Numbered from the whole stretch's first letter, positions 20,692-57,264 are shown. The stretch: 63,275 nt of DNA, filler included, from Asterionella formosa (GCA_002256025.1; 9 parts of 9 records of this genome joined end to end with filler, not necessarily neighbours in it), one strand, 5' to 3'. Numbers and translations are program-made. The notes: generated from the letters alone by a model not told the origin.

Positions 20692-20865
20692 ATTGTGGAG
20701 GTTTTTACTGTACTTTGGCTGCCCAAAGGGCCATAACTTGCATGTTGCCAGCAAGACACCCCAGCACCCTAGAGGGTACTTAATCAAAGCAGGTGAAGAA
20801 TGCGGGAATCTAACCCACCACCTCAGAAGGTGTGCTAACCACCACCAGTAAGCTATGTATTCCCC
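20692..20865 (-). mobile_element. tRNA-derived SINE-like element, copy A (tail type 1)
   Basis: Minus strand: GGGGAATACATAGCTTACTGG..GGTTAGCACACCTTCTGAGGTGGTGGGTTAGATTCCCGCATTCTTCACCTGCTTTG..CTAGGGTGCTGGGGTGT..AACCTCCACAAT; A/B-box-like motifs; aligns with copy B throughout. Confidence 0.75.
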
Positions 20866-20897
20866 CTGTTTTAACATATATAATAGCCCTGGTCACT

Positions 20898-21056
20898 GGG
20901 GAATAGCTTAGTTGTTTACCTCACTTTCCGAGGTGGCGGGTTCGATTCCCGCATTCTCCACCTGCTTTGTTTATGTAGTTCCTTGTGCTCCGGGTGGTAA
21001 ACCACGCAGGTCTAATGCCCTATGGGGCCACAGTGCGACTTAATAACCTCCACAAT
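20898..21056 (+). mobile_element. tRNA-derived SINE-like element, copy B (tail type 1)
   Basis: GGGGAATAGCTTAGTTG (A box), GGTTCGATTCC (B box, 20939-20949), GCATTCTCCA (acceptor-like end, 20960); no proper anticodon arm; ~95-nt body ending AACCTCCACAAT. Confidence 0.78.
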
Positions 21057-22149
21057 TGTCTAGTTCTTTTATTAAAGCGTACTATAAAATTTAAATATAC
21101 CTTTACAAGCCCGGACCATTTATGGTTCATTTACAAACATAGATTAGAACATCAATTATTGGTAGTCTATTTTATCTATATAGCAGTAGAAACACTATTA
21201 TCTAAGTGATCACCTATTTTAAGAAAAGATTTCTTACTTCAAAGCATCTTCAATCAGTTGATTTCCTCTACAAACACATATAGAAGCGCAATTCTTTGCT
21301 TAATCTCGCTTATTCATTCGTCTTTTCTTTTGATCCTCAGAGTCCTTTACCAGTTCAACTACTACAGCAGTAGAAATAACCTGCTGCACTGACTCAAACA
21401 TGTCAAGCGCAATTCTCTTGAAAAGTTACCGAACCCTGCACCTTCGACCTCAAGGATGGACTAGGTCACACTCCATTGTTGCCTGGCTGGATTGCAACCT
21501 CAAGTTCTCGGAGGAGCTTGTCCAGGACCTTACACCACTTGAAGTGAACCATTGATTTAACTTTCAATACTAATACACAACAGTGATGACGAGCAGAGCT
21601 TAACATCAAGCCAATGATCAAACCATCAGGGACAGACGAGATGACGTTCACCAATGTCCATTTTGGCAATAATAATGAATGATGATGATTAAAATCATGA
21701 TACCACTAGCAAAATCAATTCATAAGCATTGCTTGATATATACATGGACACAATGAATATATGTATGATTAATACATTTTTATGAGCTTATTTAGAATAA
21801 AATAGTAGAATTACAGAAACAGAATTTATACTCACTCACATCTATGTAACTCATTAAAAACGGTTTTTAGGGGTTTTCTTATCATTTTCGATTTGGCATC
21901 ATATGTTTTGAAAAATCATCATGCAACGGCTACTCGATTTAAACAGAAAAAATACATTCTCCAAAAAAACCATGAACAAAATTGTACCACCAAAAAGTAC
22001 CAAGAAAATTTTGCGGTTACTGGCCTGCTACAATCATGTGCAAATCCCTCCAGATTTCCCTCCAGACTACTTCGATAATTTTCCATTACTAAAACCATGT
22101 GGGAAAACTACGTGTATTATATACCGGTATAGAATCTATAGTTGATATA

Positions 22150-22346
22150 CCTTGCAGGCGTATTTTCGGTTGTTTTACTAGTGACAATGGAAATGATACC
22201 CGTGTGAAAACATCAGTATCACTGATACCGTTTTTGGAGGGCACAAAAAAGGTATCAATTTTGTATCAATGATACAAAATTGATACCATCAAGTTACCGT
22301 TGCTGATACCAAGTTTTGATACCAACCGCCACTTTTTTCCTGCAAC
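22150..22346. repeat. MITE-like patch rich in TGATACC motifs with a perfect 37-bp palindrome
   Basis: GGTATCAATTTTGTATCA-A-TGATACAAAATTGATACC at 22251-22287; further TGATACC copies on both sides; weak terminal inverted match TTGCAGG..CGGTTG / CAACCG..CCTGCAA. Confidence 0.65.
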
Positions 22347-22736
22347 CCGGATATGATGCAGCAAATTCGGAAGATAAGAATGACCCTTACCAAGCCGAAC
22401 CTAATGTAGAAATATTGTATGTTTTTTATGCAATCAGTGTTAAAAATAAGCTGCTCAGCATTTGAGTTGCTACAAACCGTTGCAACTGCAATTGGACAGA
22501 GGGAGTAGCTAGCTAAAAGTAAAGTTTAGATATATACTATTTAAGAGTATTAGATACTTCAAAAATTCTGTGCAAGCCTAGGGAGAGGGGGGGGGTTCTT
22601 ATTATTTTGGATAGTGTATGATGATATTTGAAAAAGTAGCTATCATGCAATGGCAACTCGATTTAAACTGAAAATATTCATTCTCCACATTCAAAAATTA
22701 AAACTTTTCACCCAAAAGTATCATGGATATTCAAAG

Positions 22737-23017
22737 GTTACAGGCTGGCTACAAAGATTTGTCTCTCCCTCCAGACCATTTTGATAGCTAATCAGTATAT
22801 GTACTTGATAAAATCTATATGTAGCCTAAATGAATATACTAGTGGTTTGGTTTGGATGATAAAGTAAACATAGATATATATTTTTTTGTTACAGGCTGGC
22901 TACAAATATTTGTCTCTCCCTCCAGACCATTCTGATAGCTAATCAGTATATGTACTTGATAAAATCTATATGTAGCCTAAATGAATATACTAGTGGTTTG
23001 GTTTGGATGATAAAGTA
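22737..23017. repeat. 130-bp direct duplication (period 151)
   Basis: 22737-22866 and 22888-23017 nearly identical; an older diverged relative of 22640-22790 lies at ~21915-22080. Confidence 0.93.
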
Positions 23018-23810
23018 TATATACATATATATATACTGGGAAATGGTGGCTGGATTCATGGTCAGGATACAGTACCCTAGGTAGCCCTCCTCCTTGGTGC
23101 TAGGATATAATTATTTTTATGGCAAATCCATGACAAAAGGACAGAAAGGGTTATTATTGTGAATCAATTATTGTCCAAGCTTTTTAAACAGTTGCTTTGA
23201 TAGGAATTTCCCCAGGAACTAGAGTTCATCAAAGATAGGCAAGTATTCCTTATCCCATGAGATTCCCCCTGTTGCAACCATCATAGGAGCTTAGTGAATC
23301 GCAGCTTTATTACCAGCTGTCAATATTCGAAAAAATGTCCCGTCTCCGGTAAATGAATAAAACTGAGCATCATTCATTGGTAGTGACTATTTGTTATGAT
23401 GGGCTCGTGATTGAGAGAATGAAAGGTCCATAATTGCCAAACAATAAAAGAAAAACTCATCAACAAACAAAACTGCTAAATTTGACCACAAACAGACAAG
23501 GAATAGTTGCCATGCTCTTATTCAACGGATGGGTGCTGTGAATGAAATGATGGAGCAAAGGCGGATTTTAGAACAGCCTTTCAAAAAGAAACGAGTGTTT
23601 TGATCATTATGCGATCAGACAGAATAACAAACGATCATCACAGATTTCAGTTCTATCGATCCTTGTTTGATTATGGCTCTTCATGTCACTTTTTACTCCC
23701 CAGATTTGTACGATCATGACCTACTCACCTCAAGCGCGTGAATTTGAAAACACAAACTCCAGTGATTCGCAGTACTACCTCGTATCACAAACTGCACCGA
23801 CACAGTACCC

Positions 23811-26800
23811 CTAATTAATGTTCAGTTTCTTTTTTAGCATATGATAGCGGCCCACATCTCCTCGACGTCTTGGCCCATTCATACCAAACATGAGCTGGAA
23901 ATCCTGGTCGGAAAACTCTTCGTGGTTTCCTCTGTAGAATGCTTCTAACTATAGAATATATGAGTGAGTCAATACGCAATCCCATGATGACCATAGGAAC
24001 GAGTCAAAGACCATCATGGCACTTACCTCTTCCATCTCGACTTCCATCATTGCCATGAAACTGGCTGAACGCTCGAAAGAAATAGCAGCAAGTTCGTCGT
24101 CCCAGAATGAGTGGTCGAAGCTAGTGGCGCCTTTTAAATCACGATACAATACAGACCCACTTCGGTCTAAGGCTTCAACTCCATTCAGTGTCAAAGGGGA
24201 TTTGGAGACAATACCCTCGCCATTTGCGATAACTCGAACAGTCTGCATCAAGAGCAATGGAATATATTGCTCCAAAGATGAAAAGGTATAGCCAGTTACA
24301 GCGTTTCCACTTGCCTCGCGGAGATTGTCGCTAGCGCCCATCAAATATTCGCCGAGATCGTTCACACAAGAAGGAATACGAACAGCGTCCTTGGCCACTA
24401 TAGTGGAACTTTTACAAATCTTGGATAAACGAGTGACACTGGAAGGAAGTAAAGACAAGTTAGTCACGGAACAAATAGCATTTTTCAGGTTCGGGCAATC
24501 GACACTTACTTCTGCATGAGCATGTCAATTCTACAGAACTTCGCTACTTTGACACCATGTGCCTTGATTGTCTTTATGGCTTCACGGAGGGCGCGAGTGG
24601 AGGTCAAAGCCTTTTCAAATGCCCCATTATGGCGAACCTTGAGGCGGCACTCCAGCAAACTGGACAACTTCAAAAGACTATGAGCCAGACAAGACGCCTT
24701 CATTAGCTCCTCGTCGGTGCAACACACAATAGAGTTAGAGCGGTCGTCCTTCGTGAAATCCAGGATTGAGGTGAGATGACTCAATTCCTGAATCAAAATC
24801 TGCTCCTCCTTCTCGACACCGCCTCCTAGGTCGAGGTCATCAGCCGTACTTTTTAGTTCGCTTACACTGTTGCGAGACTTTGGGTCACTCAAAGATGGGT
24901 TGAGTGGCGCAGAACTGGGATCCTTGTCGAAGTTATCGTCCATTTGAGTCGCTTCTAAGGCATCACCGTCTGCATACGCATGAAGAAGTTGCGCGAACGC
25001 ATTCCGTTTTTCGATAATTGCCCCAAACGACTTTTCTTTCCCTTCCTTTCCGCTATCTAAGAGGAAACGAAGAGCAGTCTTATCATTGCATAGCTGTCCC
25101 ACACGAGGCTTCACGCGAGAAATAAACGTCAGGATAGCGTGCTCCAAAACTCCCACTAAATGGAGGTACATCTTCTCGTCTTTTGGAAGGCGATGCAAGG
25201 CCAAGAAAAGGGGCCCGGTAGAGTTATAAAGAGCCTGGCAAGCAATACACATGTCGACATCCTGAGGTTTGTTTGAGTTAGGACGACCGTATAACGATCG
25301 ATCGATGACAGGATCAAAGGCATCTTCACGTTCCAACGCTTGAGTAGTTCCGTTAATGGCATCGTGCTGAAGAACAGGAATCAACTGTCTCTTGATGACA
25401 CCATCCAAATAGTGCAAGGCACCTTCCTCCGAAAACTGCCCGTATGACTGACTACTCATATCTTCACCAGAGATAACTGCAAGTTCATCCCGCAGTTCCT
25501 CAGTTTCCCATGACCACTTTGCAAGGGAACGACGGAATTCCAATGCGTGACGGACTTGAGGTGTTGTGTTTGTTTTTGGCATCAGTACATTCGTCACAAA
25601 CTCGCTCGCCGTCTTATCGGTGTTGTTCACACGAACAGAGGCCATAGCCATGGTGTCATTCTTGGCGGCTGCTTCCGTAATACCGAGAGAAAACAATCCA
25701 CGCTCCTGAGAATTCTGAGCAATGTGTTGGCGTTCTTGGTGACTCTGTTGTCCCTGCTGACCCCCGTCCTCTTCTTCAATCAAAGTTCCCCTGAGAAAAT
25801 CTTTTATTTCTCGCTGCATGGCATCGTAAGCGTTGATCAAAACAGAGTGAAGCGCTGTTGCTTTATTCCCGATGGAGTGAAGCTTTAAATCCTTCTCGGT
25901 TGTCTGAAAAGTTAATAGGAGAAATATTTAGTGTCGCCAAGAGCATCAGCAGTCAAGTAAGGAATGAGTGTAGTGATTTCACTTACAATGCGGTAACGAA
26001 AGATTTGCGCCAAATGAGCAAGGCGAATCATGACGCATCCGTACGAAGACAATAATCCTGTTAAATGGCGACGAAAGTCTTTCAAATTTAGCGAGCGCCC
26101 ACGCCGAGGTTGCTGTTGCTTGTCAAGACGGGCAAATGTCTTGGCCTGCTCTTTTTGCGACAGCTTCCGAATCTCGAGTTCGATATTTTCATTCAGGGTC
26201 CGCTCCACATCATCCAAACGTTCCAACTTGGTCAAACATTCCAATAAAATACGCAAGGCCAGGACATGGTCTGCATACCGTGGGAGACTGCGGGTATGAG
26301 CGTCGTCCCATGAATTCCCCGCCATTTCTTCTAGGCAACGCATTTCGTCTGCTTCCAAGTCGAGTTCAGCTTCTAACAGGGAGACAGGAATCATCATTTT
26401 TGTCAACTTTTTGACAACCTCCGGATTCTTGGGGGCATCGTCTCGTGAAAAGAGGGAGGCCCCTGATCCCGCACTATCAACACTCTCGTCGTCACCGACT
26501 CCTGGTCGGCGGATGCGGCTCATGAATGGGTTTTTCATTCCATTCTGAATAAAGCTCCGGGAGTCACTCGCAATACTGGCTCCCGAACTGGGAACCTTGT
26601 TTTCCGTGGTTACTAATTTCTGTTCTGGAGGCGCAGCCATTCCGTTTCCAGTACGCAAATATAGAACATCATAGAGTGTGTCCCAAATTATTTGATCGGC
26701 CCGCTGACTACGCTCCATTAACTGCATACTGATATGCTGCAGAGCGTGGACATGACTGACATTTGTATGAAACGCAACATATTTGGCTCGCGATAAAATG

Positions 26801-27483
26801 TTTGTCGCCGCTCCGATTCGAATCGGTCCCGGCGGTTTGATCAATGCGTCGAACTGTTGCGGAGCAGCTCGAACAATGTCAATTTTAGTCAATAATCCCA
26901 AAACAGCTTCGCATTCCAGCTTCTTCAACCACAACTCTCTGAGCGACATGGCTGCCGCTTGTGCCGCACTTGCTCCCTTTGCATCTCCAGATACCATTCC
27001 AACCGGATTGGACGATCCCAAGGTTTCCTTGATGTCTCTCACTTGTCGTCTTAAATGTCGCACCATGGTAACAGCATCACTGAACTGCCTCGCCACTTTC
27101 CCAACTTGGACCACACTGCTGTTCAGATCAGCACAATGACGAATGGCCATGTGCTCAATGGCATCTTCAACGACTTTCTGTTGTTTCTTGAGTGCGCGAT
27201 ACGCTGGATTATTCTTTCGCAGGTTTTCATAATCTGATATGCTTGAATTGGCATGCATGGCTGCTGGTTCTTCGACTTGCGCGCCCAGCACGTCAATGAC
27301 GCGGTGCAGTGTGTGAAACTTGAGTGGGTCCTCGAAAAAGTCATCATCGACCTCCGTCGTCAAACGGTCTTCCAGTATATCCAAGTCCTCGTGAATATCA
27401 CTGCCGCGGCGATTGGTAACCTGGGGAGGAGGATCGAAGGCGTCGTCGTCATCCCATTCGTTGAACTTGGCGGCCTGACGCAT
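23811..27483 (-). CDS. SEC8: Exocyst complex component Sec8/EXOC4; exons 27483-25987, 25903-24510, 24438-24027, 23948-23811 (~1146 aa)
   Basis: N-terminal Sec8-type coiled coil (VVEDAIEH..DLNSSV..FSDAV..VRDIKETL..LRELW..LLTKIDIV); three GTAAGT..YAG introns (83, 71, 78 bp) join the ORFs in frame. Start codon is a best guess because the frame is open further upstream. Confidence 0.85.
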
Positions 27484-27755
27484 GATTCGTGACAAAGATC
27501 TTGTTTGTTCGTTTGCTTTTGGTCGTTTTTGTGATTCCCCGCCACGAGGAAAAGTCGAGATGTCAAACAGATGCTGAAGTGCTGAATGGTGGGAGCAAAG
27601 GAGAGAATCCAACGGAATTCCTAACGTTTTGGTTGCCTCGGCACACACGACTGTTAGGTTTAGTAGTCTACCTGAAGGTGTAAGAATAAAGGTTGTTGGA
27701 CCAGATCGCATTGCTTTTTCAGGTGGCTGTTGCTTACACGATGTCATAGCCTGTG

Positions 27756-28484
27756 GAGTACCAGGTACCTGGTACCTGGTACCAGGTACTGTATGTAGCC
27801 CGGTAACGGGACGCTTGTACATGGTCCGCCAGCACTGAGCAAAACTCACTCAAGGATGTGTTATTCAATACACATATATCCAGAGATGCATGTGTCGTAT
27901 TACCGTTTTGTTAAAATCATTTGTTGATACGGCAGTACCCCCCCGGTACGCACCAGCAACCGTGTACCTGGTAACTGATTACTTGGGGTACCAGGTACCA
28001 GGGGTACCATAACTGGTTGGAGTATACCCAGTAGTGTATACATACAGTACCTGGTACCAATCAATCCGGATCATATAACGAGCGTTGGGGTGGGCCCCTC
28101 TGCTTTGCCGCCTTGTTATGCAGCACTGTACCCTGGTACCTGGTACCTGGTAGTCTATTTGTATAAAATATGTACGATATACAAGCAATCAACAAGTCGT
28201 TTGATGCATGTAGTAAAGAGGGGCATGCATAGCTATGCGAGGTCTGTATTCTCGGGTTTAAGAATCTTGGTGATTTCGCACATTTACGTTTAGGTTTTTT
28301 TTCCAAAGTTACCTAAACGTAGGATTCCATATTGACTACTTTGAATGTAGTCAATAGAAACCCAATTATCATTATCGTCGTAGAATGACTACCGGTACAT
28401 ATAGGACGCATCATATACGGGTATATCAAATACATATATAAAACAATAGCTATAGGTACCGGTACTCTGGTACCTGGTACCTGG
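27756..28484. repeat. Cluster of GGTACC-containing heptamer repeats, (CCAGGTA)n/(TACCTGG)n
   Basis: e.g. GTACCAGGTACCTGGTACCTGGTACCAGGTAC at ~27758-27789; more at 27964-28060, 28128-28152, 28455-28484. Confidence 0.85.
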
Positions 28485-39741: not shown

Positions 39742-39742
39742 C

Positions 39743-40895: not shown

Positions 40896-40896
40896 T

Positions 40897-40996: not shown

Positions 40997-42151
40997 GAGG
41001 TGAAGGTTATCACCTTGGACCAACAAGGACACGCGAACCTGCTTCATTGACTGCTGCATTTGGAATTGCTGCCAACAAAGTGGTGAGAACAGAAAAGGTT
41101 GGAAGCGGAGGCTACACTAATCTAGTCAAGAAAAATCTCCGAACTGGATTTCCGCATATTGATGCGTATGGAGAGTCACGGAAAGATATTGCCTTCAAAT
41201 GCATCGACGGCTACTACAAAAAGATCAAGAGTGATAGAAAGAAGCCTTCAGACCCTCGCAAAACTTTTGATGGTGAAGAAGAAGACGATGCCGACGTAGC
41301 TGCTCGTGATGCTGTAAAATGTTTGGAACATGCCATGGTTGTGGTTGCAGGAGAGAAAAATGTTTACCGTGCCTGCATTGCACCGTCCTTGTTGCAAGGA
41401 ACAGACGAAGATGCCACTCAGATATCACCGTTCTACCGCAAGGCTTGCATAGCTGCATATTCCCACATTGTCGCAGCGATCGTTGATCGTGCAATGGACA
41501 TTATTGAGACTGTTTTCTTAAAGGAAGGCCTTATTGGACAGTCCAGCGGTGATAAAGGAGACAAGGAAGGCGCTTCATCGCCTTTGACGGTACGAAATGC
41601 TGCGTCAGCTGCTGCTTCGGGATTGCGGATGTTAGATGGCGTTAGAATGCTTGGACCGTCTCTTGCTAAACTTTGTGACATGCCATACGAGGACGATTTC
41701 TCTGCTGATGTACAGAAGGGCGGTCAAAGCACTATGACAGTTGCCTCAACCCTCTGTATTGCCATTCACAGAACTACTGTGAAGAATACAGCCAAGACGT
41801 TGGAGAACCTTGCGAAAGCGATCCAAGAGGATCCCGTCAATGGTGTAAAGCACCGTCCTCCTGATGCTCGTATTGCATCTGTGAGCTCCGACGTTGTTCG
41901 TGCGCTTCGTCTCATTTCGCCATTCGTCAGCGCATATAAATCCGTCACAAAACGACGTGCTCTCCCTTGGGATCCAAATATCGGAGAGGAAGCAGGTGAG
42001 ATGGAGTCGTACGTGAGATTTTTGATCATGCGCCTGCTTAACTCGCTTCAAGGAAAAGCATTGAATTACACAAAGGGAAACGAAGAGGACGAGGGTGGTC
42101 AAGCGAAAGCCAATATGTTTATTATCAACAACACCTTCTACCTACTTCAAC
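40997..42151 (+). CDS. EXO70: Exocyst component Exo70, internal fragment (copy 1)
   Basis: Frame open across the whole contig; Exo70 C-terminal pattern RPPDARIASVSSDVV..LIMRLLNSLQGKALNY..MFIINNTFYL. Confidence 0.75.
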
Positions 42152-42251: not shown

Positions 42252-43406
42252 GAGGTGAAGGTTATCACCTTGGACCAACAAGGACACGCGAACCTGCTTC
42301 ATTGACTGCTGCATTTGGAATTGCTGCCAACAAAGTGGTGAGAACAGAAAAGGTTGGAAGCGGAGGCTACACTAATCTAGTCAAGAAAAATCTCCGAACT
42401 GGATTTCCGCATATTGATGCGTATGGAGAGTCACGGAAAGATATTGCCTTCAAATGCATCGACGGCTACTACAAAAAGATCAAGAGTGATAGAAAGAAGG
42501 CTTCAGACCCTCGCAAAACTTTTGATGGTGAAGAAGAAGACGATGCCGACGTAGCTGCTCGTGATGCTGTAAAATGTTTGGAACATGCCATGGTTGTGGT
42601 TGCAGGAGAGAAAAATGTTTACCGTGCCTGCGTTGCACCGTCCTTGTTGCAAGGAACAGACGAAGATGCCACTCAGATATCCCCGTTCTACCGCAAGGCT
42701 TGCATAGCTGCATATTCCCACATTGTCGCAGCGATCGTTGATCGTGCAATGGACATTATTGAGACTGTTTTCTTAAAGGAAGGCCTTATTGGACAGTCCA
42801 GCGGTGACAAAGGAGACAAGGAAGGCGCTTCATCGCCTTTGACGGTACGAAATGCTGCGTCAGCTGCTGCTTCGGGATTGCGGATGTTAGATGGTGTTAG
42901 AATGCTTGGACCGTCTCTTGCTAAACTTTGTGACATGCCATACGAGGACGATTTCTCTGCTGATCTACAGAAGGGCGGTCAAAGCACTATGACAGTTGCC
43001 TCAACCCTCTGTATTGCCATTCACAGAACTACTGTGAAGAATACAGCCAAGACGTTGGAGAACCTTGCGAAAGCGATCCAAGAGGATCCCGTCAATGGTG
43101 TAAAGCACCGTCCTCCTGATGCTCGTATTGCATCTGTGAGCTCCGACGTTGTTCGTGCGCTTCGTCTCATTTCGCCATTCGTCAGCGCATATAAATCCGT
43201 CACAAAACGACGTGCTCTCCCTTGGGATCCAAATATCGGAGAGGAAGCAGGTGAGATGGAGTCGTACGTGAGATTTTTGATCATGCGCCTGCTTAACTCG
43301 CTTCAAGGAAAAGCATTGAATTACACAAAGGGAAACGAAGAGGACGAGGGTGGTCAAGCGAAAGCCAATATGTTTATTATCAACAACACCTTCTACCTAC
43401 TTCAAC
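42252..43406 (+). CDS. EXO70: Exocyst component Exo70, internal fragment (copy 2, probable allele)
   Basis: Same 1155-bp boundaries as 40997-42151; at least 6 SNPs, 3 non-synonymous (P/A, I/V, V/L). Confidence 0.75.
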
Positions 43407-43506: not shown

Positions 43507-43510
43507 ATGT

Positions 43511-44661: not shown

Positions 44662-44761
44662 NNNNNNNNNNNNNNNNNNNNNNNNNNNNNNNNNNNNNNN
44701 NNNNNTTAATTAATTAANNNNNNNNNNNNNNNNNNNNNNNNNNNNNNNNNNNNNNNNNNNN
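44662..44761. other. Artificial contig linker
   Basis: N44-TTAATTAATTAA-N44. Confidence 0.99.
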
Positions 44762-44847
44762 GCAGAGGATGCCTTCTTGACAGGAGCTGGGGCGAATGCA
44801 GCAGCTGAGCCGACGAGAAGAGCGCTGATAGCAACAGTGAACTGCAT
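44762..44847 (-). CDS. 5' end of a nucleus-encoded plastid-targeted protein (possibly a light-harvesting protein)
   Basis: MQFTVAISALLVGSAAAFAPAPVKKASS: signal peptide plus ASAFAP-type motif; mature part cut off by the contig end. Confidence 0.8.
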
Positions 44848-45487
44848 TGTATTATTTGTTGTTGCTTTGTCGAAGGCTATTATGGACTCAAAATGAATTT
44901 GTGAGAACACGAAGGCGAAACGATGGAGAGGAAATGGATCTTACGAATCTTTGACTTCTCATTTTGGTACCCCGTTCAACATTGTGTACTTAGCAATAGC
45001 GATATTTGGTAGGAGTACGTACAGACCAGTGAAGTGATAGTTTGGATGCAACTATGCCAGAACAGAGGGAGAGAACTTATGTGCGATAATTGAATACACA
45101 CATACGTATGTGAATTCCATTACTGGTCCCCTGCTACCCACGTACGTGCTTGTCAGCATTGGGGATCGTCGTCCCTAGACCATACATTCAACATGAAAGC
45201 CAATCAAAAGTTCACAGACGCCACTTTGTTAGCTGCCATGAGCAACGTCATACCCTACGGTATGTTCAGTCGTATGATGCGACCGGTATTAGGATTTGTT
45301 GTTATGGAGGTTACCGGGAAATTATATCTTGAATATTTCGAATACCTGGTACAGGTATGCCGATAAGAATAATATCCGGGTACTGGTAGTTATGTAGTAA
45401 CAATTGTACCGTTTCTGTATGTTAGGAATGTCCCTCTGCACTGACACTTGTAAGTACTGTTACGTCACTTCTTGCAGTTCGGACCTG

Positions 45488-45626
45488 TTAAGGTTCCTGC
45501 ATTTCAACCCTCCAAAAGTGCAGAAAGGAACTTCGGTTTTTTTAACTATGCTGAAAATAGCGGATTTTACTGGGCCAACTTGTTTATTTGGCCTAGTTAA
45601 AAAGCCCATGTTCCTTTCTGCACTTT
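45488..45626. mobile_element. MITE-like derivative of the Mutator-like element at 15298
   Basis: TTAAGGTTCCTGCATTTCAACCCT and TGCAGAAAGGAACTTCGGTTTTT shared with 15298-15549; perfect 17-bp inverted repeat 45515-45531/45610-45626 extending imperfectly inward. Confidence 0.8.
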
Positions 45627-45847
45627 CTCATCGAAAGTAAACTTCTGAGGCTATATGAAGATTACCTATGTACTCAACTCTTCTTCTAACCCTGCCAACA
45701 TTGAGCTATCATTGTTCAAAAATTCGACAATATTGATCTTTTCAATGGTCTTCAAAATGTCAGAATCAGAATCACTAATTGCCGAAACGTCATCATTGGA
45801 ATAGGAGTTTTTTGATTCAATTTTTTGTCCTACAATCACCTGTGAGG

Positions 45848-45893
45848 CTGACAAAAAGGCAGGTCCCGTTGTACTGTACGGACAAATAAAACC
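45848..45893 (+). mobile_element. SINE-like element, 3' tail only (copy E, tail type 2)
   Basis: GGCAGGTCCCGTTGTACTGTACGGACAAATAAAACC matches the tails of copies C and D. Confidence 0.7.
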
Positions 45894-46851
45894 AGTACTC
45901 CTATGATATCTATTCATTAGCTGAGGTCAACACACTCAGCATCACGATGCCATTTCAGATATATTCACAATACAGGTATGTTATTCATATATTTTTTATC
46001 TTCAGAATTCATACGGAATATAGTTTATGTAAAAGAATAAGAGAATTCACATTGGATGCTGACAATATCGATGGTAAAGATGATTGTTGATATGCTTCAT
46101 GCACCCAGTTAACAACAACCACATTGCATTGATTTTCTCCATCATTTCATGCCCAATAGCACTCCGAAGATTTGCAGTCGATAACACACTAATTCGAATA
46201 GATATTTAGTTGAGCATTTCAAATTCAATATTAAATGATTCATTCCATACTTGTTTTGTGCTCATTAGGGTTGGTTGTTGCTTACATCACAAATCTTGTC
46301 GCGATATTTCTCGAGATCCATATCGCTCTGTTTTTCTCAATCAAATAAGGGCAAATTGCAATCAAACAATTTGTAGTGAAGTTGTCTTTCGCAATGATTT
46401 ATCCTCTAAAAAATTTATCTTGAACTTTTAAAATATTTAGTTGTAACATCAACTAGTCCTGCCTTGGAAATAACCTTATGATTGTGAACCATCACATGAA
46501 ACCTTGACAAGTAATCTTGTTCGCTCAGTATAACAGTAAATATTATTTACGTGAAGTGCACAACCATAAACCGTACCTGGTAGCATGAATTAAGACACCA
46601 CAAATATCCTTACTATTTCACAAAGGAAGATGCATGTCGTAAATGAATTAGCCTCGAGAGCACGACTTACTTGAACTTTGAAATGAATTATTTGAAACAT
46701 CAACTGATTCAGTATTGAGTTCAAAGTTTTTTGTGAAATCTTCACATGAAACTGTTAAAAGTAACCTTTTCTACAGGAAGAGTAGCATTAATTCATGTGA
46801 AGTAGTAAGAGTAATTATAAAACAAAGCTTGTTAACATCACGACGTAACTA

Positions 46852-47066
46852 TGTCGCCGGACAAAGAGTATATAATTGAATTATTCCATTAATGTGAGAT
46901 TATATTACGCTCCACTGGTCAATATAATCATACTACAGATCTCCGTACATATATTATGTACGTAACCAGTTACATCTCATATGACTTCAACCTGTACTCT
47001 GCTCCCACCGTATGAGGAACTCAACACGTGTATGCCTTGTGTATAGCTGATCCATTTCTCCTTACT
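46852..47066 (-). mobile_element. Candidate solo LTR
   Basis: 47031-47064 identical to 11650-11683 (5' edge of copia remnant); the other end reads ...CCGGCGACA on the minus strand; ACTATG at 46848-46853 and 47064-47069. Confidence 0.5.
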
Positions 47067-47419
47067 ATGAAGTAGTAACACATAATTAACACTCCTACGT
47101 AGAGCAAATTTCGAAAAGTGGCGTATTTCGCGGCTTAAATGTACAAGTGCGGTAGCTAGAATAATAAAGAATTGTACTCGCCTTAATGATTTCGACAAAA
47201 AAAGTTACTTTTTAAGAGTGATTTCAGTACCTATCAAAGCTTACCCCTCACGCTACAATAGCTTATCAAAGATTTAGAAGAAGGCTTCTAGTGAATATGC
47301 CATAGTTGATGTAAAGAATTCTATGAAAAATTTATGAAGTTGCATTGCAAAGGTACTTGTGATCCGGCCGACGAAATTAGCTGCAGCGTTAAAATGTACA
47401 ATTGCTGATGATATTTCCA

Positions 47420-47775
47420 CTTTGCAATCATTTCCTTTGCTAATTCCCTTCCCTTTTTGTTTTCCCATTCCATTCGATTCTGCAGCGCATTATTAGTATA
47501 TTCATCAGACTATAGTCCAAAGACTCCGTTTTCTTCATCCGATTCTTTCTTAAGTGGGATGATGTAAATGTCAGAAAAGGTAATTTCCAACTCATACCAA
47601 CTATCAGATGGATCAGTCTTGGACCGTCCAGATCTATCAGACAAGAAGCCTCCAACATTTCAATGTACAAAAGCTGATTCCATTCGAAAAGTTCATGCCA
47701 ATTTCGTATTGTGTGGGCCACATTGGATGTTTGGATCATGTGAACAATTGTTGCCTTGACATCGTCAACCACTGA
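47420..47775 (-). pseudogene. Decayed cyclic-nucleotide phosphodiesterase domain (diatom cyclase-PDE fusion family)
   Basis: KATIVHMIQTSNVAHTIRNWH..WNQLLYIEM, then frameshifted FDIYIIPL and GVFGL..DEYTNNALQNRMEWENKK. Confidence 0.75.
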
Positions 47776-48554
47776 AGTGATAACAGCCTGATTGTCGCCA
47801 TGTAAAACCTCTGTCCACCACCGCTCTTGCGATCATTTACTTTAGGAGCGGCTTGTTGGCTCAGAGTGCCATATGATGGCGTGCATGCTCAAAGTTGTGA
47901 AAGGGAATGGCTTGATAAAGGCAAGCAATCTTTCCAACATATTAACGCAATTGCCGCTGAGGCTTGAGTTGCCGCATATCATAACAAAATAAACTTAAAA
48001 TTCTTAAAATGATTCAACCTGCCAGTACTTGCATGCATTTTTTGACCTCTGCTCTAAGGGTTTTAATTGGGGTCCATTGAACATTTTTCTAATTTTAGTC
48101 CAAAAACGGGGTAATATAGTGGTCTTAAGCAGTTTTGACCGGTACCAGTATTTGAAAAAAAGGAACACGGCCTTTTTTAACTTGCTGATCTTATCTACTT
48201 CCATTTCTCCCTAACATAACATGTGCGATTATGTAAGTTTGTATGATCCTTAAAAGGGAATGATTTATGGACAGCACGACTAGGTAATACTGATGGTAAG
48301 TAAGTCTAACTTAACTATTTCTATATAAGTTATCAATTCTGGGTTGGTTACTTGTCAGCTCAAGAAAGAATTCAAAGCAAATATTGACAATCTTCATTTA
48401 ACATTTTCATCAAAGGAGGGCATCACAAGGAACAGCATTGCAATTAATTTTGATGTTGTTGTCAAATGCAAAATGTGTTGTTCCTGCAAAAAATCATGTA
48501 TATACTTCACGCATTTTTCACACCCATTAAAATACAATCTCAAATTTGTTGTCG

Positions 48555-50186
48555 TCAATAGCATTCCGTGCAGCAGGTACAGTTAACTTCTGACTTGCAA
48601 TCTGCCGCCAAAGAAATCAAAAGATTGCTAGTAAGGGCACAAATTTCAGATGGCATGGTACCTTGGATGGAAGTGCTATTCACTTCAAAAATAGACATTG
48701 CGGCCAAATTGCCAATCTCAGAAGGTATGGTCCCAGTTAAAGCATTATCGTAAAGCCACATTTGTACCATGCCTGATAATTTCCCAAGTTCAGAAGGTAA
48801 AGGACCTTTCAGCGATAATTTTGTCAACGACAAAGACGCGAGAGTTGTGACCAAGCCAATGGTAGTAGGAATGGTGCCAGTGATGTTAGGGTTGTCGTCC
48901 ATCCAGAATTCCACTGCAAATGAAAAACATTGGAATTAGAGTCAAACAAAAATAAGAATAATCCAATGTTATCAAACACTCACAAATCGTGGGCATATTC
49001 TGGAGAAACTCCAGGTTCCCAGTTAAATCTGATGATTCAATGTATAATCGCTCCAGGCTAGGTAAACTGTAAATACTGGCAGGTATGGAGCTGCTGTATT
49101 GGTTGCCTCCCATGGACAAATAGAACAACTTCGGTAGGTTGGCAAAGATTTTTTCTGTCAAATTCCCAAAATATAAATTGTATGAGCAATCGTATGATTC
49201 AAGGAGGGGCAGGTTTGAAATTTGAGGGGGAATACCATCATATTGAAAATAGTTGGATCCGTAATAAAGATTCTTGAGATTTGTGAGTTTTCCTAGCCAA
49301 CCATTGCCTGTATCACCCTCATTGTGGATTAGGTTTAAGTAGAGATCAAGATAGTACAATGATTCCTTGAGGAGAGTCAATTCCTCAGGTAGGCTTCCTG
49401 TCAGGACGTTTTGATACAACTCAATCTTTCCGACAAGCCCAGAAGAATCACAAGTGATACGATACCACCCGCAAACGGTGCTATCTGACAACCAGTTGGT
49501 GTTAACTTGCCATGGGAGAACTACATTGCTTCCAAATTGCACGTCCGTATCTGAAAAAGTCGTTTGTTGCAAATCACACAATCAGCAACAAGTGCGTAAG
49601 AAAACGAGCCACAACAGAACACACATAAAAAGCCGCGGGGAAAGCATTGTTACCTACATTTCGTCTGAACAGCATTTGTGGAATAGTACAAACACGCCAA
49701 GGCGTAGCGTTGTACCACCTGTGCATCACTATATACTGTGGTTCCAGTTTTCAACCAGGCCAACGCCTTGGACTGGTAAGACGTTGCATCAGAGAATTCA
49801 ACGCCTCCTTGAAGGGCAACAGATAGAATCAAGGTTTCAATGTCCGATGGAGCTGGAGCAGTGGTCGGAGTACTAGTGGGAGCTGGAGTAGCAGGAGCGG
49901 TGCCGTCGCGGGTTGGGGCAACAGTGTTGGAGCCTCTAACCGTCGAGGGCGACGCCGTTGTAGGTGAAGCAGAACTCAAAGGAGAAGCCACACTAACACC
50001 TGAATTACTGGAGCTTGTACCTTCAGTGTTGTTGTTCCCTTGAGCAAGAACTACACCCAAGGCAATCGCAACAATGGCGCATACCAAAAGTCCGAGAGCG
50101 CCAATGAGCAAGGTGCGGCGCTTGCGATCTGTCGTTCCAGTTGTTGTTTCCGACGTACTGCGGGTTTGATCGTCATCGGCCGTCAT
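48555..50186 (-). CDS. Type II membrane LRR protein; exons 50186-49658, 49550-48984, 48913-48555 (484 aa)
   Basis: N-terminal TM helix after KRR, S/T/P stalk, SYQSKALAWL..QRYALACLYYST, LRR N-cap, plant-type LRRs, terminal CTCCTECY; two GT-AG introns (107, 70 bp) keep the frame. Confidence 0.92.
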
Positions 50187-52228
50187 GTTGAAAGGAAGGA
50201 CGCCGGCCTACAAAGAAAAAAAGGCGTCGAGACTGAGAATCAAATTAATGCATTGTATGTTGGTATCGGTATTATTTGCCTACCGGTCCATTCTCACAAA
50301 GTTTATTACCGGTATGTAATAGATTCAAGCAAATCATATAATACCGGTAGTAAAATAAACGAAAATATAGTAACGGTATACCGGTACACACTATAATCGG
50401 AGTACAGCATTATATAGTTCAACATGCACCTGTGGTGATGTTCGTGTCTGTCGACCAGGACTGGCTCGAAAATGACATTTAAAAGCATGAGTATGAACAT
50501 ACAGGTATACCCGGTATACTCCGGTTTTATACCGTCTACTGGTATTGAAATATAATTCTTGACAATTTATACCCTATATAAATATAACTGCCTCGGGCAC
50601 TAAAGTCTAATACTGGTGTACAGTTGGGCAGAATGCATAATGATACCTGAATATATTCATGGAACATTTATTTATTGATTTATGAATGTGTATTTCGAAA
50701 TTTTTAAACGTTTTAGTATCAGCATTTCGTCGTTTCCGTTTTCTCGAAAAACAGAAACACACAATGTGTATACAAGTATGGATGTAATCATTAAGATTTG
50801 AATTTCTGTGCTCCCATGTAAAAGTTGGACCATTGGCGAAAGCATCGCTACCGGTAGTGTCGTTCATCCCATAGTATAGACATGCCCGTATAAATATAAA
50901 TATGCCACAAAAGCATCATCAAATCTTCTGTATTGTACGTATGATGCACGAGTACAGACATCAGCCAGCAAGCAAGGAAAAAGCAAAGGCACTGGAAGGA
51001 ACGGCGCCACTCACTCAATCAACAGCCAACACAGGACGGAAAAATGCATGTGGCTGTGGTACGATTCCTCGCTACACCTTGTTCGCACAAAAGATTTGAA
51101 TTGTGTTCGGGTTTGTATACCGGGAACGTAGTCGTAAAAAATTGAACTCCGAGTTAAACCCGTAGTGAAAGCTAGTACAGTGCACAAAGCTACAGAGCGA
51201 CAATACCGGTACTGGTAGCAGCTACCATTGCTCCTATCGGTACCAGGGTACAGTCACAGGGTACGTGTACCGGTATGCGGGGAATGGACCATTGTATATA
51301 TATATTAGAGTACTCAATATGGAGTCACCACCAGTACATATACTTTTGCAGTATATTACAGTAAATAGAGGGCCAAGTCTATTACTGATAGGTATGTCTA
51401 TTTATCATGTAACTGAAATGAAGTGAATCAATCAATGTGTACCTACATAGCTATATTGAAAAATAGTGAGAAAAAAATGTAACTACAGAAGTATGAAATC
51501 ATGCATCTGTGTTATAATAACCTAAATACATACTAGCTGTGTATGACCACCAGTGTGATGATCAGCAGATATCAATTGATTGGCAATCTAATCTGTGGCA
51601 CTGTTCTATCTGGAATACATGCCTCATACATTTTGTCAATTTGCAATGTGGCAGTGAAAAGAATGCAGCTCAAAGTAGGGTAGTCATCATTTCCCACGCA
51701 ACAATTTGCCAAGCAACAATAATCAAACTTTTTTACTCTATCCTGCACAGCCCTTGTAACATTTGTAGCCACCTTACAAACCTAGTTCCAACTTTGCATT
51801 CCTACCAAAGAACAAATAGTTTTTGGTGAAACAGAAAGACTACAATACTGACAGAATTGCTTCCTCCCTCCTCCCTCTTTGATGCACATCCTGCATCATT
51901 TCTGTTGGTTCATCAACTTTTTAATTGTTGAAAACTTCTTTCTGGACTCTCAATCATCATTCTGCATACTTGTCACTCCTTCTACCACCAATAATACTAG
52001 TAGTCAGAAGTCAAAACTCCTTCAAGATGAGAGTTGATTGGCTGATGTCATTCAGCACCATACTTTCAAAACTAGGCGATATTGCATCTCGATCTGCTGG
52101 GAGTACAACCCAAGTATATAGTTCTAAAACAAACTGGCAGCTCAGACTTCCCTCCTTCACCTGCTGTTGGTGTCCCATCACTAACACCTTCCTCTCCTGA
52201 CCTGCAGGTGAGAAGTACCAGTAGGTCT

Positions 52229-54757
52229 ATGGTGGTGCAATGTGGTGCAGCGACGACATGACGTCACGAAGTCATTTTGAAATATTGTTGTTGCGCATGT
52301 GCACCTTTTCAATATTCATCTCCAACGTTGCATCATGCACATCACCACACAGAAATGCAAATAAACAGCAAAATCACCAAATGTGATGATTGAAAGCGGT
52401 CACTGGTTCTTGCTATCGCTGACATGCAATTTCTTTTGTTTTACTAACCAATTTACTCTACAATAAACCTTTGCTACATCCGCAGCCTTTGGAGAATTTT
52501 GAGTGGAGGAACTGGGGATGGAGACTGTGGAAAGTGTCTTTGTTGCTATCGCAATGATTCAGGAAGCATGCGATGATCGGCTTGATGAATTTTACATCAA
52601 AGAGTCGCATCCTTTCAGTGACATCTGAATGGAGGAGACTCTCCATTTTTCTTGCAAGATTCAAGATCAAGTCAAGCTTCTCATGAGAATTTTTCGTTTT
52701 TGCAACCTCAAAAATCTCGTCAAATTCTATGGACCCACTTTTCCGGTTTTTCTCTGGTGCTGTGGGGATGGTAGCAGCATCCGTTATTCCAATAGCATAA
52801 ACTGTGTTAGTAGAACCATTTTCCTTTGTTGAATCTTGATAACTTGTAGTAGCAGCAATAGCATTAGAATACATCCGATTTTCTTCATTCTTCATAACTC
52901 GTGCATGTACCACAATGTTGATCAGGCTGTGTAATTTTTCTGCACGAGTGGTAGCTAGCTCGTTCAAAAATAACTCGAGCTGTTCATTGGCATTCTGCGG
53001 CCGTACGTAGCTCATAGCAAGGGTAAATATGTGCGCAGGACTGAAGGAGCTTGGGTGTGACCTTGGGACATTCATTCGATCATGTACATACCTTGTAGAA
53101 AGCTCCGAAATTTCGCACTGAAAAACCACCGATGGTAGGTTTAATACTAGTGTAGCTGTAGTCACCTTGACAAATATAGACTTGAATGTACGCACTTTTT
53201 TTAAATGATTGTTGTGTATGTGGGCAATTGCTAGCTGGGCATCTGCATCCTCAACGTATAACTTTGCAGTCTTGAGTGACTGGTGTCGAGCAGATTTCAT
53301 CAAGGCTTCCACTGCTCCACCACCCCAACGACCAAACAGGTACCCAGTCCTACGAAACATGTGCATACCAACCTTCAAATTCTCCAAACCAAGCACCTCC
53401 CTAACAAGTTTAGTTAACCGGTTTGTTCCCACTTTGTAGGACAGACATCTGCATGACAAAAATGCCATTAGCCGGTGGTCATTTTGATTCGTCCTCCTCT
53501 GTAGGAAAAAGAAAACCTCCCCTGATCTTTGCACAGTGTATGTAAGACAGTAGGAGTGACACTGGACAAAACTCGGGGAACTCTTCATCGATCCAGAGGA
53601 ACAGATGCACCCAGTTTTCGTCTGAATTCCCAAAGACTTTTAGACATAGAGCTCGGATATTTCCGGCATCATCAAAGACAAAATGCTTTGCTTCGAAATG
53701 GTCTAGCTCGATGTCCACGAAGTCATCAAAGCGAAGGAACAGACAAATAGAAACCTGGATGATTGTAAATGTCTGCAAGTCAATTAATGAATTGCTGGAC
53801 AAAAGACGATCACTCAACGTTCGTACCCAGCAAGGTAGTAGCTGCTCTGTAGGTTGCCTTACTAAGTAGTCTCGTCTATCCATCCCAATTCTATCCAAAC
53901 AATCTGTAAAGACCGAATCGTATGCAGGATTACCAGATCTAAGTAGAGTAGGATGACCCTTGTGGGTACTGCATCCCTTATACCACTCATCAAAGGGCAT
54001 ATCACGACAATCCTGACAAGCCTGTATGTAGTTACCAGTTTGATTGTGAGCTGTGTGAATGCCCCGTACTGCAGTACGAAATCCCTTACGGTTTTCAGGA
54101 GCATTCCAATCCCCACGACATTTTATAGGATGCCCAATGACATCAACCACTTCCTTTCCACCAAGATCCAATAATGTCATATTGATGCGTTGTATTTCCA
54201 CCATACATACATTACAAGGGATTCTACCTTCATCGATGGACAGTTTGCAGGACATTTGTCCCTAAGTATCAACAGTGACTCATAATCACCAATCAACTTG
54301 AAGATTTTTTTAAGACCACGAAAGTGAACCTCATAGCTTAGCTCTGTACGATACCGGAGTGCACTTGCTTGTACCAGTCAATTTTGCCAAACGTCGGTCA
54401 ACAGATGTCTTTTTCAATTTGTCCAAAGCATTCAGAATTCTTTGGGCTACTTTATCTTCAATATCTGCTGCTGGTATATCCTTGGCATATAAGACATCCC
54501 GAGGTAGATTGGCAAGCTTTTTAGTCTCACCGCGTGTATTCTTCTTACTCATTCTGACAATTCAAGTATATGGATGCGAAATTGGCAAGTTAAGTGAACA
54601 AATTATTCATCAAATGTTGGCGGGCTGTAATTTTGAGGATCACATGTATTCCTATACAGTTATGTATATTAATATAGTTGCACGGATTTGATATAGTCTG
54701 GTGCAATTCAGGTTACTCTAAGTAAAGTGGTGCAATTGTGGTGCAATGGTGGTGCAA
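52229..54757 (-). mobile_element. Crypton-like tyrosine-recombinase DNA transposon candidate
   Basis: Single disrupted YR gene with no RT or gag adjacent; TGGTGCA(A) motif clusters at 52229-52249 and 54699-54757; true ends not defined. Confidence 0.65.
52458..54552 (-). pseudogene. Tyrosine recombinase with Cys/His-rich N- and C-terminal regions (~690 aa reconstructed)
   Basis: Catalytic pattern LFLRFDD (R), CPVSLL..GGFLFP, HMFRRTG (HxxR), ARHQSLKTAKLY (H, Y); hidden frame IGDYESLLIL..CPSMK at ~54180-54350; in-frame TGA at 53479 and several frameshifts. Confidence 0.88.
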
Positions 54758-55483
54758 ATGCCAATGGGCAGTTGAATTTACCAATAGTTTTTCCAGTTTC
54801 ATCCCGTTTTGGGAAAAGTCCCAGTACTCTACCGCTGCTGCATACCCAGTACCAGGTACCATGCCTGGTATCAGGTACCAATGGTACATGCATGTCAGAG
54901 TGTGTCTGTTTTTTTCGAATTGCAAATAGCTATAACGACGGTAGTAATAAATCCATGTCGATTTCTTTTTAAACTGTACTCGAGTACATTTTATTTATGT
55001 CTAGAGTGAACGTAACAATATCGCACGAGGTAATACCATGGTACTACAGTTAGGCCAGGCGGTCTAACAGAGATACAAAATGGGAAAAAATGATGCTCAG
55101 CCCAATTTTTTTGTATCCAACATCTGGATGATATGTTGCTTCCAGCAACCCATTTTTTGTTGCTCCAAAATGTGCATCTTTGTGCATTGCTGAATGGTAG
55201 TAAAATGAAGACAATAGTATTCTGGCACCAGCAGGGTACTGGTACTTACGACTAGTAAGCAAACAATATTGCAAACAATTTTGAAATCTCATCATCATCA
55301 CACTTCCATCATTCCCATCTCACAATGACTCCATTTTGCAGCGTCTATACAAGATGCTTCCCATCTTTTGCTTTAATAGATCATGTTATTGTTTAGTCGC
55401 CTTTGTAGTGTACTAAGAGTCAAATCTGCTGATAGCATCACCGTTTTGAAGTGTGAATCTGTAAATTAATCATTTAAAAAATG

Positions 55484-55685
55484 CGCTATCGGCTATTTCA
55501 ATTTTCGTTGTCAATAAAAGAGTTATTACAACTATTCTTTTACGATTGTATTTTTTATATTGTGCTTAATATATTTACCCAATAGCAAAGCGTCGTTTTC
55601 ATTTTTCATGGAGATATGTGTTAATTTCATCATGGTCAAGGCTGAGTCAACATGATGCATCATACATACTCCAGCCACTCACAAC
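55484..55685. repeat. Diverged dispersed repeat, homologous to ~38765-38960
   Basis: Same collinear blocks as the 38765 copy. Confidence 0.8.
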
Positions 55686-55829
55686 GAATACTACATGGTT
55701 ACTCCTTAGTGCTATACCAGTAAATACATAGAAAAGAATCGAATAATCTAAGCTTAATGATTATAGGTAACGACTGGAGGTGAAAAAGCAGACAATTGGG
55801 AAGGAGATAATTCAGAATCTGTACTGATG

Positions 55830-56323
55830 ATGATCAGAGGCAATATCTTGTCTGGTGGCAGAAAGTTGCTTTGATAGTAGGTGAGGAGACTTCCTTGTTG
55901 ACGATTCAGGAGTAAAGTGAGAGCTCCGTTTCTTTTCAGATACTGCTTCATACCACCCGGTTGTGTAAGAAACAAAAAATTGGGCCAAGTAACATAATTT
56001 TTATTTTTGTATTTCTGTTAAGACCTCCTGCGCTAAGTTATGTGGTCAAGATTTTGGTTTGTTCTTCATCGGTTTCTTCATACAAAATGATTTTTAGCCT
56101 CCCAACATTCGACTCCGAACTGCCACATTGTTAAAACCAAATCGCTCCTCCATTTTGCACCTCTAGTTGCCTCATCATGAATCCTCCTGGCCCTACAGCA
56201 TGCATAGGGGAAAGGAATCGTATTACTCAACAGCAAAGGGACGGCCGGAAGAAACAGTTGCGACCACGCACGACATACAATATAGCTAGTCTGCGCTCTT
56301 GACAGGCATTTGAAAAGTGTCAA
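55830..56323 (-). mobile_element. Possible 3' remnant of a non-LTR retrotransposon ORF2
   Basis: Trp-rich KWRSDLVLTMWQFGVECWEAKNHFV followed by LFLTQP..QQGSLLTYY, like LINE ORF2 C-termini. Confidence 0.45.
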
Positions 56324-56396
56324 TTAAATTTTATATAACATTAAAGCTATCCAATAATCGCACTCGGGCCCAAATAAATGGACACTATTAGTACCA

Positions 56397-56550
56397 GTTT
56401 TATTCGTCCGTATGGTACAACGGGACCTATCTTTTCGTCATCCGCAACCCCCGCAACCATAGGGACTACATGAAAAAGATAGTTGGAGAATGCAGGAATC
56501 AAACCCCCCGCTACCACCGCAGAAGGTGTGCTAACCACTAAGCCATTTCT
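56397..56550 (-). mobile_element. tRNA-derived SINE-like element, copy C (full length, tail type 2)
   Basis: Minus strand: TGGCTTAGTGGTTAGCACACCTTCTGCGGTGGT..GGTTTGATTCCTGCATTCTCCA..ATGTAGTCCCTA..AGGTCCCGTTGTACCATACGGACGAATAAAAC. Confidence 0.78.
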
Positions 56551-57175
56551 GGCTGAAACAGCCAATATATTTGCAACATGCATATCACCTAGTTCTACTA
56601 TGCCTGTGTAGGCGCTGGTATGTATGTAAGTATTTAGCGGAGTGAATTTGATTCTGCAGTTTATATAATACCCTACAGTGTTGTTGTAGCAAATGGCCAG
56701 AGAGTTATGCATGATGTTGTCTCAGCATTGACCATAAACAAAAATAGAGAGTATCTTTATGAAAACTGAAAATTACGCTTTGCTATTTGGTAGATATATT
56801 AAGCACAAGTGATTATTGTGGATGTATTCACCTGCTTGCAGCTAGTGGGGCGCGTATCGCTTTTTGTGCCTCATAATGTATGCGGACATGCTTCTTGACA
56901 TCAACAGAATATTCGTTCGTCTGATCGATGTGGTCTCTTATCTGAGTAGCTATCCGCACCTGCAACCCGTCCTTGACATGGTTGGCTTCCTTAATTTTGT
57001 CGGTCTTCTCCTCCTCTGCTATTGCCTTGGCAGACACACATTTGCTTTGCAGATTCTTATTTTCCTTGCTTATGCTGCTAACGGTGATCGGATTGGGTCC
57101 CCATAAAACTAGCACATGGTACACAGGCCATCAGGACGATGTACTTATCCAGAGATTGTCAAAACTGTTATCGTT

Positions 57176-57264
57176 CTTTTATGTAGTCCCTAGGGTTCTG
57201 GGGTGTTTGGCAGACAAGAAGACAGGCAGGTCCTGCCTGTTGTACCGTATGGACAAATAAAACC
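57176..57264 (+). mobile_element. SINE-like element, 5'-truncated copy D (tail type 2)
   Basis: TTTTATGTAGTCCCTAGGGTTCTGGGGTGT..GGCAGGTCC..GTTGTACCGTATGGACAAATAAAACC. Confidence 0.75.

Follow-up and report, generated by a model that had tools for sequence, protein, structure and literature searches.

We examined a stretch of 63,275 nucleotides from the freshwater diatom Asterionella formosa (GCA_002256025.1), hereafter the window, which consists of nine contig pieces joined by spacers of the form N44-TTAATTAATTAA-N44 and contains five related short pieces, A to E. These five pieces most probably represent a family of tRNA-derived short interspersed elements (SINEs) in the nuclear genome of this diatom. 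The full-length element is ~210-252 bp long and consists of a tRNA-like head, a core, a module that exists in two versions, an AT-rich terminal stretch and a short T run. An earlier note on this DNA had proposed a SINE family from the same pieces, and the proposal is well supported on the points that the note itself had offered for its refutation: the copy number is high, the 5' boundary is shared, the head does not qualify as a normal tRNA gene and the flanks of copy C are single-copy.

Copies in the window and in other sequence data

When the window was compared with itself using blastn, A and B were 84.6% identical over 65 nt, A and C 81.0% over 58 nt, C and E 82.5% over 57 nt, D and E 82.9% over 41 nt, C and D 70% over 90 nt and B and C 72.7% over 88 nt. 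A profile hidden Markov model of the five pieces, run against the whole window with filters off (nhmmer), gave exactly five matches with E-values from 3e-45 to 3e-10, located at 20692-20867 (minus strand), 20895-21056 (plus), 56389-56554 (minus), 57174-57270 (plus) and 45841-45899 (plus). No sixth copy was found in the window by this profile search, the one extra match (E 2.8) being noise. A and B are located in the contig piece 19873-38386 and E, C and D in the piece 44762-63275. The self-comparison, the profile search and the contig layout thus placed all five pieces where the earlier note had described them, on two unlinked contigs.

The abundance of the family was examined by contig depth, using Logan contigs with at least 80% likeness over positions 56150-57400 from two DNA sequencing runs (X1 and X4, the latter from another study than the former) and two RNA runs (X14 and X24). 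The sequencing runs that contain this DNA are labelled as freshwater, lake-water or algae metagenomes. In X1, 3,507 contig pieces were found on the 1,251-bp stretch around C and D, and the summed depth was 290,068-764,257 in bins 56318-56527 compared with 719-836 in the flanks 56150-56275 and 56570-56695. The corresponding values in X4 were 1,894-5,960 over C and 6.88 in the flanks. According to the tool's own warning summed contig depth is not a copy number, and the ratios of element to flank (~350-1,060 in X1 and 275-866 in X4) were read only as hundreds of copy equivalents. Copy D was also repeated (depth 12,643-53,771 in X1). Since both flanks of C are single-copy in the depth data, the repeat is not an internal part of a larger element. 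Grouped by identity to C, 151 of the X1 pieces were at least 99% identical, 550 were 95-99%, 1,799 were 90-95% and 1,007 were less than 90% identical, showing that the family is moderately diverged. Between C and D, at 56738-56821, another and unrelated short repeat was seen, with an X1 depth of 16,367-24,713 compared with ~840-1,200 around it.

Three further loci (L001, L002 and L003) were obtained by a pattern scan of 241 million metagenome records. The pattern demanded GGGTT in the T arm where the read-derived majority sequence is CAGGTT, and most copies were therefore probably missed. L002 is a full copy of 252 nt that is alike to C over 230 nt and has an unrelated upstream flank, L003 is of the same body type as C (type 2, see below) and starts inside the T arm, and L001 consists of a head followed by unrelated sequence. 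The truncated copy in L003 starts within a (GAT)n-rich, coding-looking stretch (L003:150-200) and may have inserted into an acidic-repeat gene or been exonised within one. Using the translation of C as query, we obtained 13 open reading frame (ORF) "proteins" from ENA assemblies (67-78% identity), all of them other copies in translated form. Short dispersed copies, 210-252 bp when full length, are thus found on two pieces of the window and on three metagenome contigs. No match to the head or tail pattern was found among viral contigs, and none to the head pattern among prokaryote genome contigs. Three prokaryote loci that matched a 21-nt degenerate 3' motif were rejected as chance matches, given that nhmmer gave nothing there and blastn only 21-22 nt.

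Four copies (A, B, C and L002) were full length and were examined for their ends and for duplications. Copy A (20648..20866, minus strand; nhmmer E 2.9e-45) is ~219 nt long with a type-1 body and is alignable with B and C between its GGGG start and its AT-rich terminus; the earlier note had given this piece as 20692-20865. Its tRNA-like head lies at ~20798-20866, and its 3' end at 20648 was placed by the T run and the direct repeat following it. Copy B (20898..21107, plus strand; E 1.8e-41), also with a type-1 body, is ~210 nt long with a 3' end that is accurate to a few nt, and its alignment with C extends to ...CCTTTACAA. Copy C (56313..56551, minus strand) is ~239 nt long with a type-2 body and was delimited by its likeness to L002 and by the boundaries from depth and loose contig ends; its first four bases have decayed to CAGA, compared with GGGG elsewhere, and it carries a 6-nt insertion ahead of the T arm. 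A and B are arranged head-to-head at a distance of 31 bp, as are C and D at ~620 bp, and in both pairs the tails point outward.

The two remaining copies are fragments. Copy D (57173..57270, plus strand; E 5.2e-22) comprises the core and the type-2 module without head and 3' terminus, and the contigs of other copies run on upstream of 57178 with the head end ...CTCCACCTGCTTTG. Copy E (45841..45899, plus strand; E 2.6e-10), recognised by its likeness to C, comprises the type-2 module only; the likeness fades after ~45899-45915 and is not significant beyond 45899. D and E had been described as progressively 5'-truncated. Their 5' parts are indeed gone, but the 3' terminus is gone as well, and there is no clean 5'-truncation series. 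D is broken at ~57270 by a different repeat, an array starting at ~57284. In this array (57284-58360, ~1.08 kb) a CCAATACAAGGT-type motif recurs many times, both directly and inverted; it also contains a 24-nt unit present nine times and a pair of 19-nt arms (57418-57436 and 58303-58321) that are 100% complementary. Its start is also repeated in the genome (depth 24,333-66,149 in 57326-57400 compared with ~900 in unique DNA), and the array may represent a DNA element, foldback or other, that broke into D.

The 5' boundary and the tRNA-like head

The 5' end of the element is sharp. Loose contig ends were concentrated at 56547 (35 in X1, 29 in X4 and 22 in X14) and read CCCC followed by unlike, AT-rich sequence, which indicates that the element strand starts with GGGGAATGGCTTAG, GGGG first. 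By depth and loose ends the 5' boundary of C was placed at 56547/56551. The first bases are GGGGAAT in A, B and L001, and TGGGAAT in L002. The translated copies give the same boundary: 7/13 extend upstream of the element, and in all seven the likeness begins at G-N-G (the reading of GGGAATGGC), continuing as G-N-G-L-V-V-S-T, which corresponds to GGGAATGGCTTAGTGG…; upstream of this point the residues are unlike. The common boundary anticipated in the earlier note is therefore present and coincides with the first G of the tRNA-like head, at tRNA position +1.

The head is ~68 nt long and contains an A box, TGGCTTAGTGG, at +8 and a B box, GGTTCGATTCC, ~40 nt downstream; these boxes, the acceptor end and the core motifs read as quoted in the earlier note. 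We take both boxes to fit the type-2 consensus of RNA polymerase III (Pol III), TRGCNNAGTGG and GGTTCGANNCC. The consensus structure of five heads (RNAalifold) was a cloverleaf with a 7-bp acceptor stem, a 3-bp D arm that contains the A box and a 5-bp T arm that contains the B box. A G3:U70 pair was present in the acceptor of 5/5 heads, A73 and the T arm were likewise kept in 5/5, and the acceptor stem is followed by A-C-C. The position of the anticodon arm is occupied by a CACC(U)/(A)GGUG hairpin with a loop of 4 nt in the consensus and 4-7 nt across the heads. When the B and L002 heads were folded alone the minimum free energy structure was also the cloverleaf (-23.8 kcal/mol and z -2.65 for the B head).

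Despite this fold the head is not a tRNA gene. ARAGORN found no tRNA in the window and accepted 0/5 heads at default or 90% thresholds, and its calls on the heads at 70-80% thresholds were mutually inconsistent. Nothing in the window reached the gathering score of an Rfam family, and the core gave no Rfam match. The best sub-threshold Rfam match of the head was the tRNA-like domain of transfer-messenger RNA (tmRNA; 16.4 bits, E 4.6e-4, gathering score 47), which we attribute to the Ala-type acceptor, and another was to mascRNA (17.6 bits). The resemblance to tRNA-Ala that the earlier note had seen in the frame of the head is reasonable. An origin of the head from a tmRNA or a plastid was considered and rejected, as the matches are far under the gathering score and the D arm and A box are of the nuclear-tRNA type.

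It is conceivable, although improbable, that the copies are multi-copy tRNA-like Pol III genes or tRNA pseudogenes that arose by duplication at the DNA level and are possibly functional as sources of processed tRNA-like small RNAs. The G3:U70 acceptor, A73 and T arm kept in every head, the tRNA-like nature of both sub-threshold Rfam matches and the lack of a target-site duplication in 2/4 full copies would all agree with such genes. However, the family comprises hundreds of copy equivalents that have in common a ~170-nt body unrelated to tRNA, sharp ends and unrelated flanks, and a duplication of DNA would have brought flanking sequence along. In addition, the divergence of the copies amounts to 5-20%, and truncation or decay has affected some of them (the first 4 nt of C, L003, D and E), which argues against selection on each copy.

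Body modules and 3' ends

Downstream of the head a core of ~35 nt is conserved (…TTTATGTAGTCCCTAGGGTTCTGGGG…), and just past it the copies diverge into two body types. Type 1 is found in A and B and type 2 in C, D, E, L002 and L003. Loose contig ends at 57222 in X4 and X14 go on with AGGTCTAAGGCCC…, a B-like module, indicating that type 1 has further copies and that its junction is at the same place.

The earlier note had interpreted the two body types as two swappable 3' tails taken from two partners among the long interspersed elements (LINEs). This was not supported, since both tail motifs turned out to be internal and the element ends 45-95 nt further on. The alignments of C with L002 and of A, B and C, as well as the read-derived boundaries, showed that the pieces had been ended too early. 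C and the unlinked L002 are alike for ~85-90 nt past AATAAAAC, where C had been ended at 56397, down to ~56313. Their likeness ends with …ATTGACAC/ATTGACAA and a T run, and their upstream flanks differ. The 3' ends of C derived from reads were 56313, 56318 and 56341. Similarly, A and B can be aligned to each other and to C for ~45-50 nt past AACCTCCACAAT (CACAAT), to the AT-rich end. Given that the 3' ends lie beyond both motifs, the "two tails" are two variants of an internal module. Judged by alignment, the terminal stretch may be common to both body types, the likeness being weak: out of 500 shuffles, 18 scored as well for A-C, 6 for B-C, 99 for A-L002 and 437 for B-L002. The small stem-loop ascribed to the second tail was unremarkable, with folds of -5.5 to -5.7 kcal/mol that were no better than those of shuffled sequence (z -0.26 to +0.51).

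A run of four to five T was located at, or at most 9 nt from, the inferred end in 3/4 full copies (A, C and L002), and B has only TTT. The consensus of loose ends before 56313 reads as an A run on the plus strand, corresponding to a T run on the element strand, with an overall agreement of only 0.42. AATAAA is present in the type-2 copies C, D, E and L003 and takes the form AATTAAA in L002; it is located ~75-95 nt before the end of the element, and there is no A tail.

Spread of the family and alternative explanations

Judging from the two promoter boxes, transcription by Pol III would start at the head, and the terminator-like T run would be where it stops. The enzyme of some LINE would then reverse-transcribe RNA of the element at target sites that are AT-rich and nicked, and the insertion would leave target-site duplications (TSDs) of variable length. 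The two body types would be subfamilies that differ in the internal module and not in their 3' ends. Putative TSDs were seen at A and L002. At A the upstream copy (20869..20882, minus strand) is located 2 nt before the head and matches the downstream copy (20634..20647, minus strand; TATATATTTTTAAA on the element strand) in 12/14 nt; 91/2000 shuffles scored as well, and 12/1000 in a wider test. The direct repeat of L002 matches in 11/13 nt (64/2000 shuffles as good) and its upstream copy abuts the head. In both cases the downstream copy comes after the T-rich end. No contig joint in the runs skipped the whole element, as would be seen for an empty-site allele.

Several observations weigh against a SINE family. 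The TSDs are present in 2/4 full copies and each is only marginal (p ~0.03-0.05), and no significant duplication was found for B and C (1479/2000 and 965/2000 shuffles as good). D, E and L003 all lack the 3' terminus, a loss that is not predicted by simple 5' truncation during retroposition. A LINE reverse transcriptase or endonuclease was not found among the 41 ORFs of the window, in which the sole RVT match was the RVT_2 domain of a Copia element, and a LINE-like 3' end was not seen in the window either. Compensatory base changes were found in 0/20 pairs of the head structure. In the RNA runs the element occurred only inside longer contigs, at ~175-340 times its neighbourhood and no higher than in DNA, and contigs cannot show the ends of an RNA. 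The sample of DNA copies that were read directly is small (eight: A-E, L001, L002 and L003), and the depth ratio rests on summed contig depths.

The paired arrangement of the copies raises the alternative that the family is a foldback element or a DNA element resembling a miniature inverted-repeat transposable element, with the A/B and C/D pairs as its two arms and the tails as inverted termini. Both loci where copies are paired in the window are indeed head-to-head with the tails outward, and the A/B heads with their spacer (20770-20990) would form, in a read-through transcript, a long hairpin of -102.9 kcal/mol (z -11.5) that was matched in stability by 0/200 shuffles. Over this hairpin a plant microRNA-precursor model, MIR6457, scored 52.6 bits compared with a gathering score of 140, and was rejected as a generic match to a long hairpin. 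Single copies, however, have no terminal inverted repeats: when the first 40 nt were compared with the reverse complement of the last 40, 0/4 full copies scored beyond chance, with 439, 449, 998 and 757 of 1000 shuffles scoring as well. L001, L002, L003 and E are solo copies, and the contig data already suggest that the majority of copies stand alone, with unrelated sequence on either side. The stretch of 620 bp that separates C from D is mostly single-copy (836-2,039 compared with at least 290,000 in the element) and the partners are unequal, D being without a head. The candidate TSD of A lies within the 31-bp A/B spacer, which fits two separate insertions and not one foldback unit. Taken together these results make a foldback origin very improbable.

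Least probable of all is a solo long terminal repeat (LTR) or other part of a non-autonomous LTR retrotransposon that carries small-RNA-like sequence, as in terminal-repeat retrotransposons in miniature or Cassandra-like elements: such elements exist (PMC10886601) and a Copia element is present in the window, but the profile search revealed no direct-orientation pair around an internal region, the ends are GGGG… and a T run and not TG…CA, and the flanks of C are single-copy.

The tRNA-derived SINE family remains our preferred explanation, and a more extended version of it can be formulated. According to this version no high-copy SINE family of a diatom would have been defined anatomically before this one, and an exchange of modules by template switching, at a fixed junction just after the core, would have produced the two body types, each with the 3' region of a different diatom LINE, and frequent inverted pairs of the A/B type would feed hairpin RNAs into small-RNA silencing. 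As a whole we consider this combination unlikely. In a bolder variant, the Ala-type minihelix of acceptor and T arm, with its G3:U70 pair, would have been kept because enzymes of tRNA processing or charging handle the Pol III transcripts.

The genes of the window are eukaryotic and include a Copia-type RVT_2 polyprotein, a Sec8-like protein, LRR proteins, RNase H2 subunit C and an SDR protein. The named relatives of the SDR protein are all from diatoms (Pseudo-nitzschia, Cyclotella, Nitzschia, Phaeodactylum, Cylindrotheca and Stephanocyclus), with 64-69% identity. The Copia-type polyprotein is encoded at 5586-8535 (minus strand) in two adjoining frames, one with RVT_2 and a retroviral SH3-like domain and the other with a Pol beta-barrel domain and a zinc knuckle. 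Two short pieces, 40997-42151 and 42252-43406, are 99.5% identical over 1,155 bases and contain the same frame of ~386-420 aa without a Pfam family; they are probably alleles or a recent duplicate.

Comparison with known SINEs

A textbook SINE consists of a tRNA head, a body and a poly-A or poly-T tail and is flanked by a target-site duplication of variable length. In diatom genomes, Copia-type LTR elements are usually said to dominate. The family described here is an ordinary kind of element, and the understanding of how SINEs work is unchanged by it. In practice it supplies a concrete consensus with which diatom assemblies and metagenome bins can be masked and annotated. Its insertions, scored as present or absent, can act as markers in studies of strains and populations, and the family is a starting point in the search for the LINE active in this lineage.

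The closest parallels are the tRNA-SINEs of plants with a poly-T end. In the passages of one study cited here, 26/61 grass tRNA-SINE families end in poly-T (PMC5585668). The poly-T families of grasses, together with p-SINE-like and Au-like elements, resemble the present family, as far as that account goes, in having a tRNA-like head whose A and B boxes keep tRNA spacing, a body that is unrelated, a length of 100-400 bp and, going by the putative ends and duplications seen here, a T-run end and variable TSDs, features that are listed there as canonical (PMC5585668). For Au-like SINEs an RTE-type partner and an insertion signature have been described (PMC6007223). The differences are that the host is a diatom and that its four full copies have a short T run of 3-5 nt. 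AATAAA in type-2 copies and the apparent T-run end also recall the mammalian T+ SINEs (B2, Dip and Ves). In the excerpts of the account cited here, however, these elements carry AATAAA and a Pol III terminator together at the 3' terminus before an A-rich tail (PMC8466645), whereas AATAAA is located further upstream in the present family and an A tail is missing. With the tRNA-like domain of tmRNA, and probably with tRNA-Ala, the head has in common the GGGG… acceptor, G3:U70, A73 and a canonical T arm, but it differs from them by the lack of a 7-nt anticodon loop, by the rejection of all heads by ARAGORN and by a tmRNA match far below the gathering score.

SINEs of diatoms were said in the earlier note to be poorly documented, which agrees with the literature, where in the portions cited they appear through automated annotation only (PMC5859163, PMC7466962, PMC8147415). 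A search of a limited collection for SINEs in diatoms, Bacillariophyta and stramenopiles gave no description of the anatomy of a diatom SINE. According to the respective main-text accounts, 13 putative SINE copies with a total of 1,454 bp were annotated in P. tricornutum (PMC5859163), and for C. cryptica (PMC7466962), Pleurosigma (PMC12803021) and S. costatum (PMC8147415) there is nothing beyond a class entry for SINEs, the last of these reports speaking of "only two other diatom species". In the same kind of text SINEs of diatom genomes occur only as small putative classes, and reviews cited there considered most unicellular eukaryotes to lack SINEs (PMC7466962, PMC5859163). The present family has the host group and the class label in common with these putative SINEs. 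It differs from them in that their head, boundaries and TSDs are undescribed in the main-text accounts, whereas the family in A. formosa has a defined anatomy and is present in hundreds of copy equivalents.

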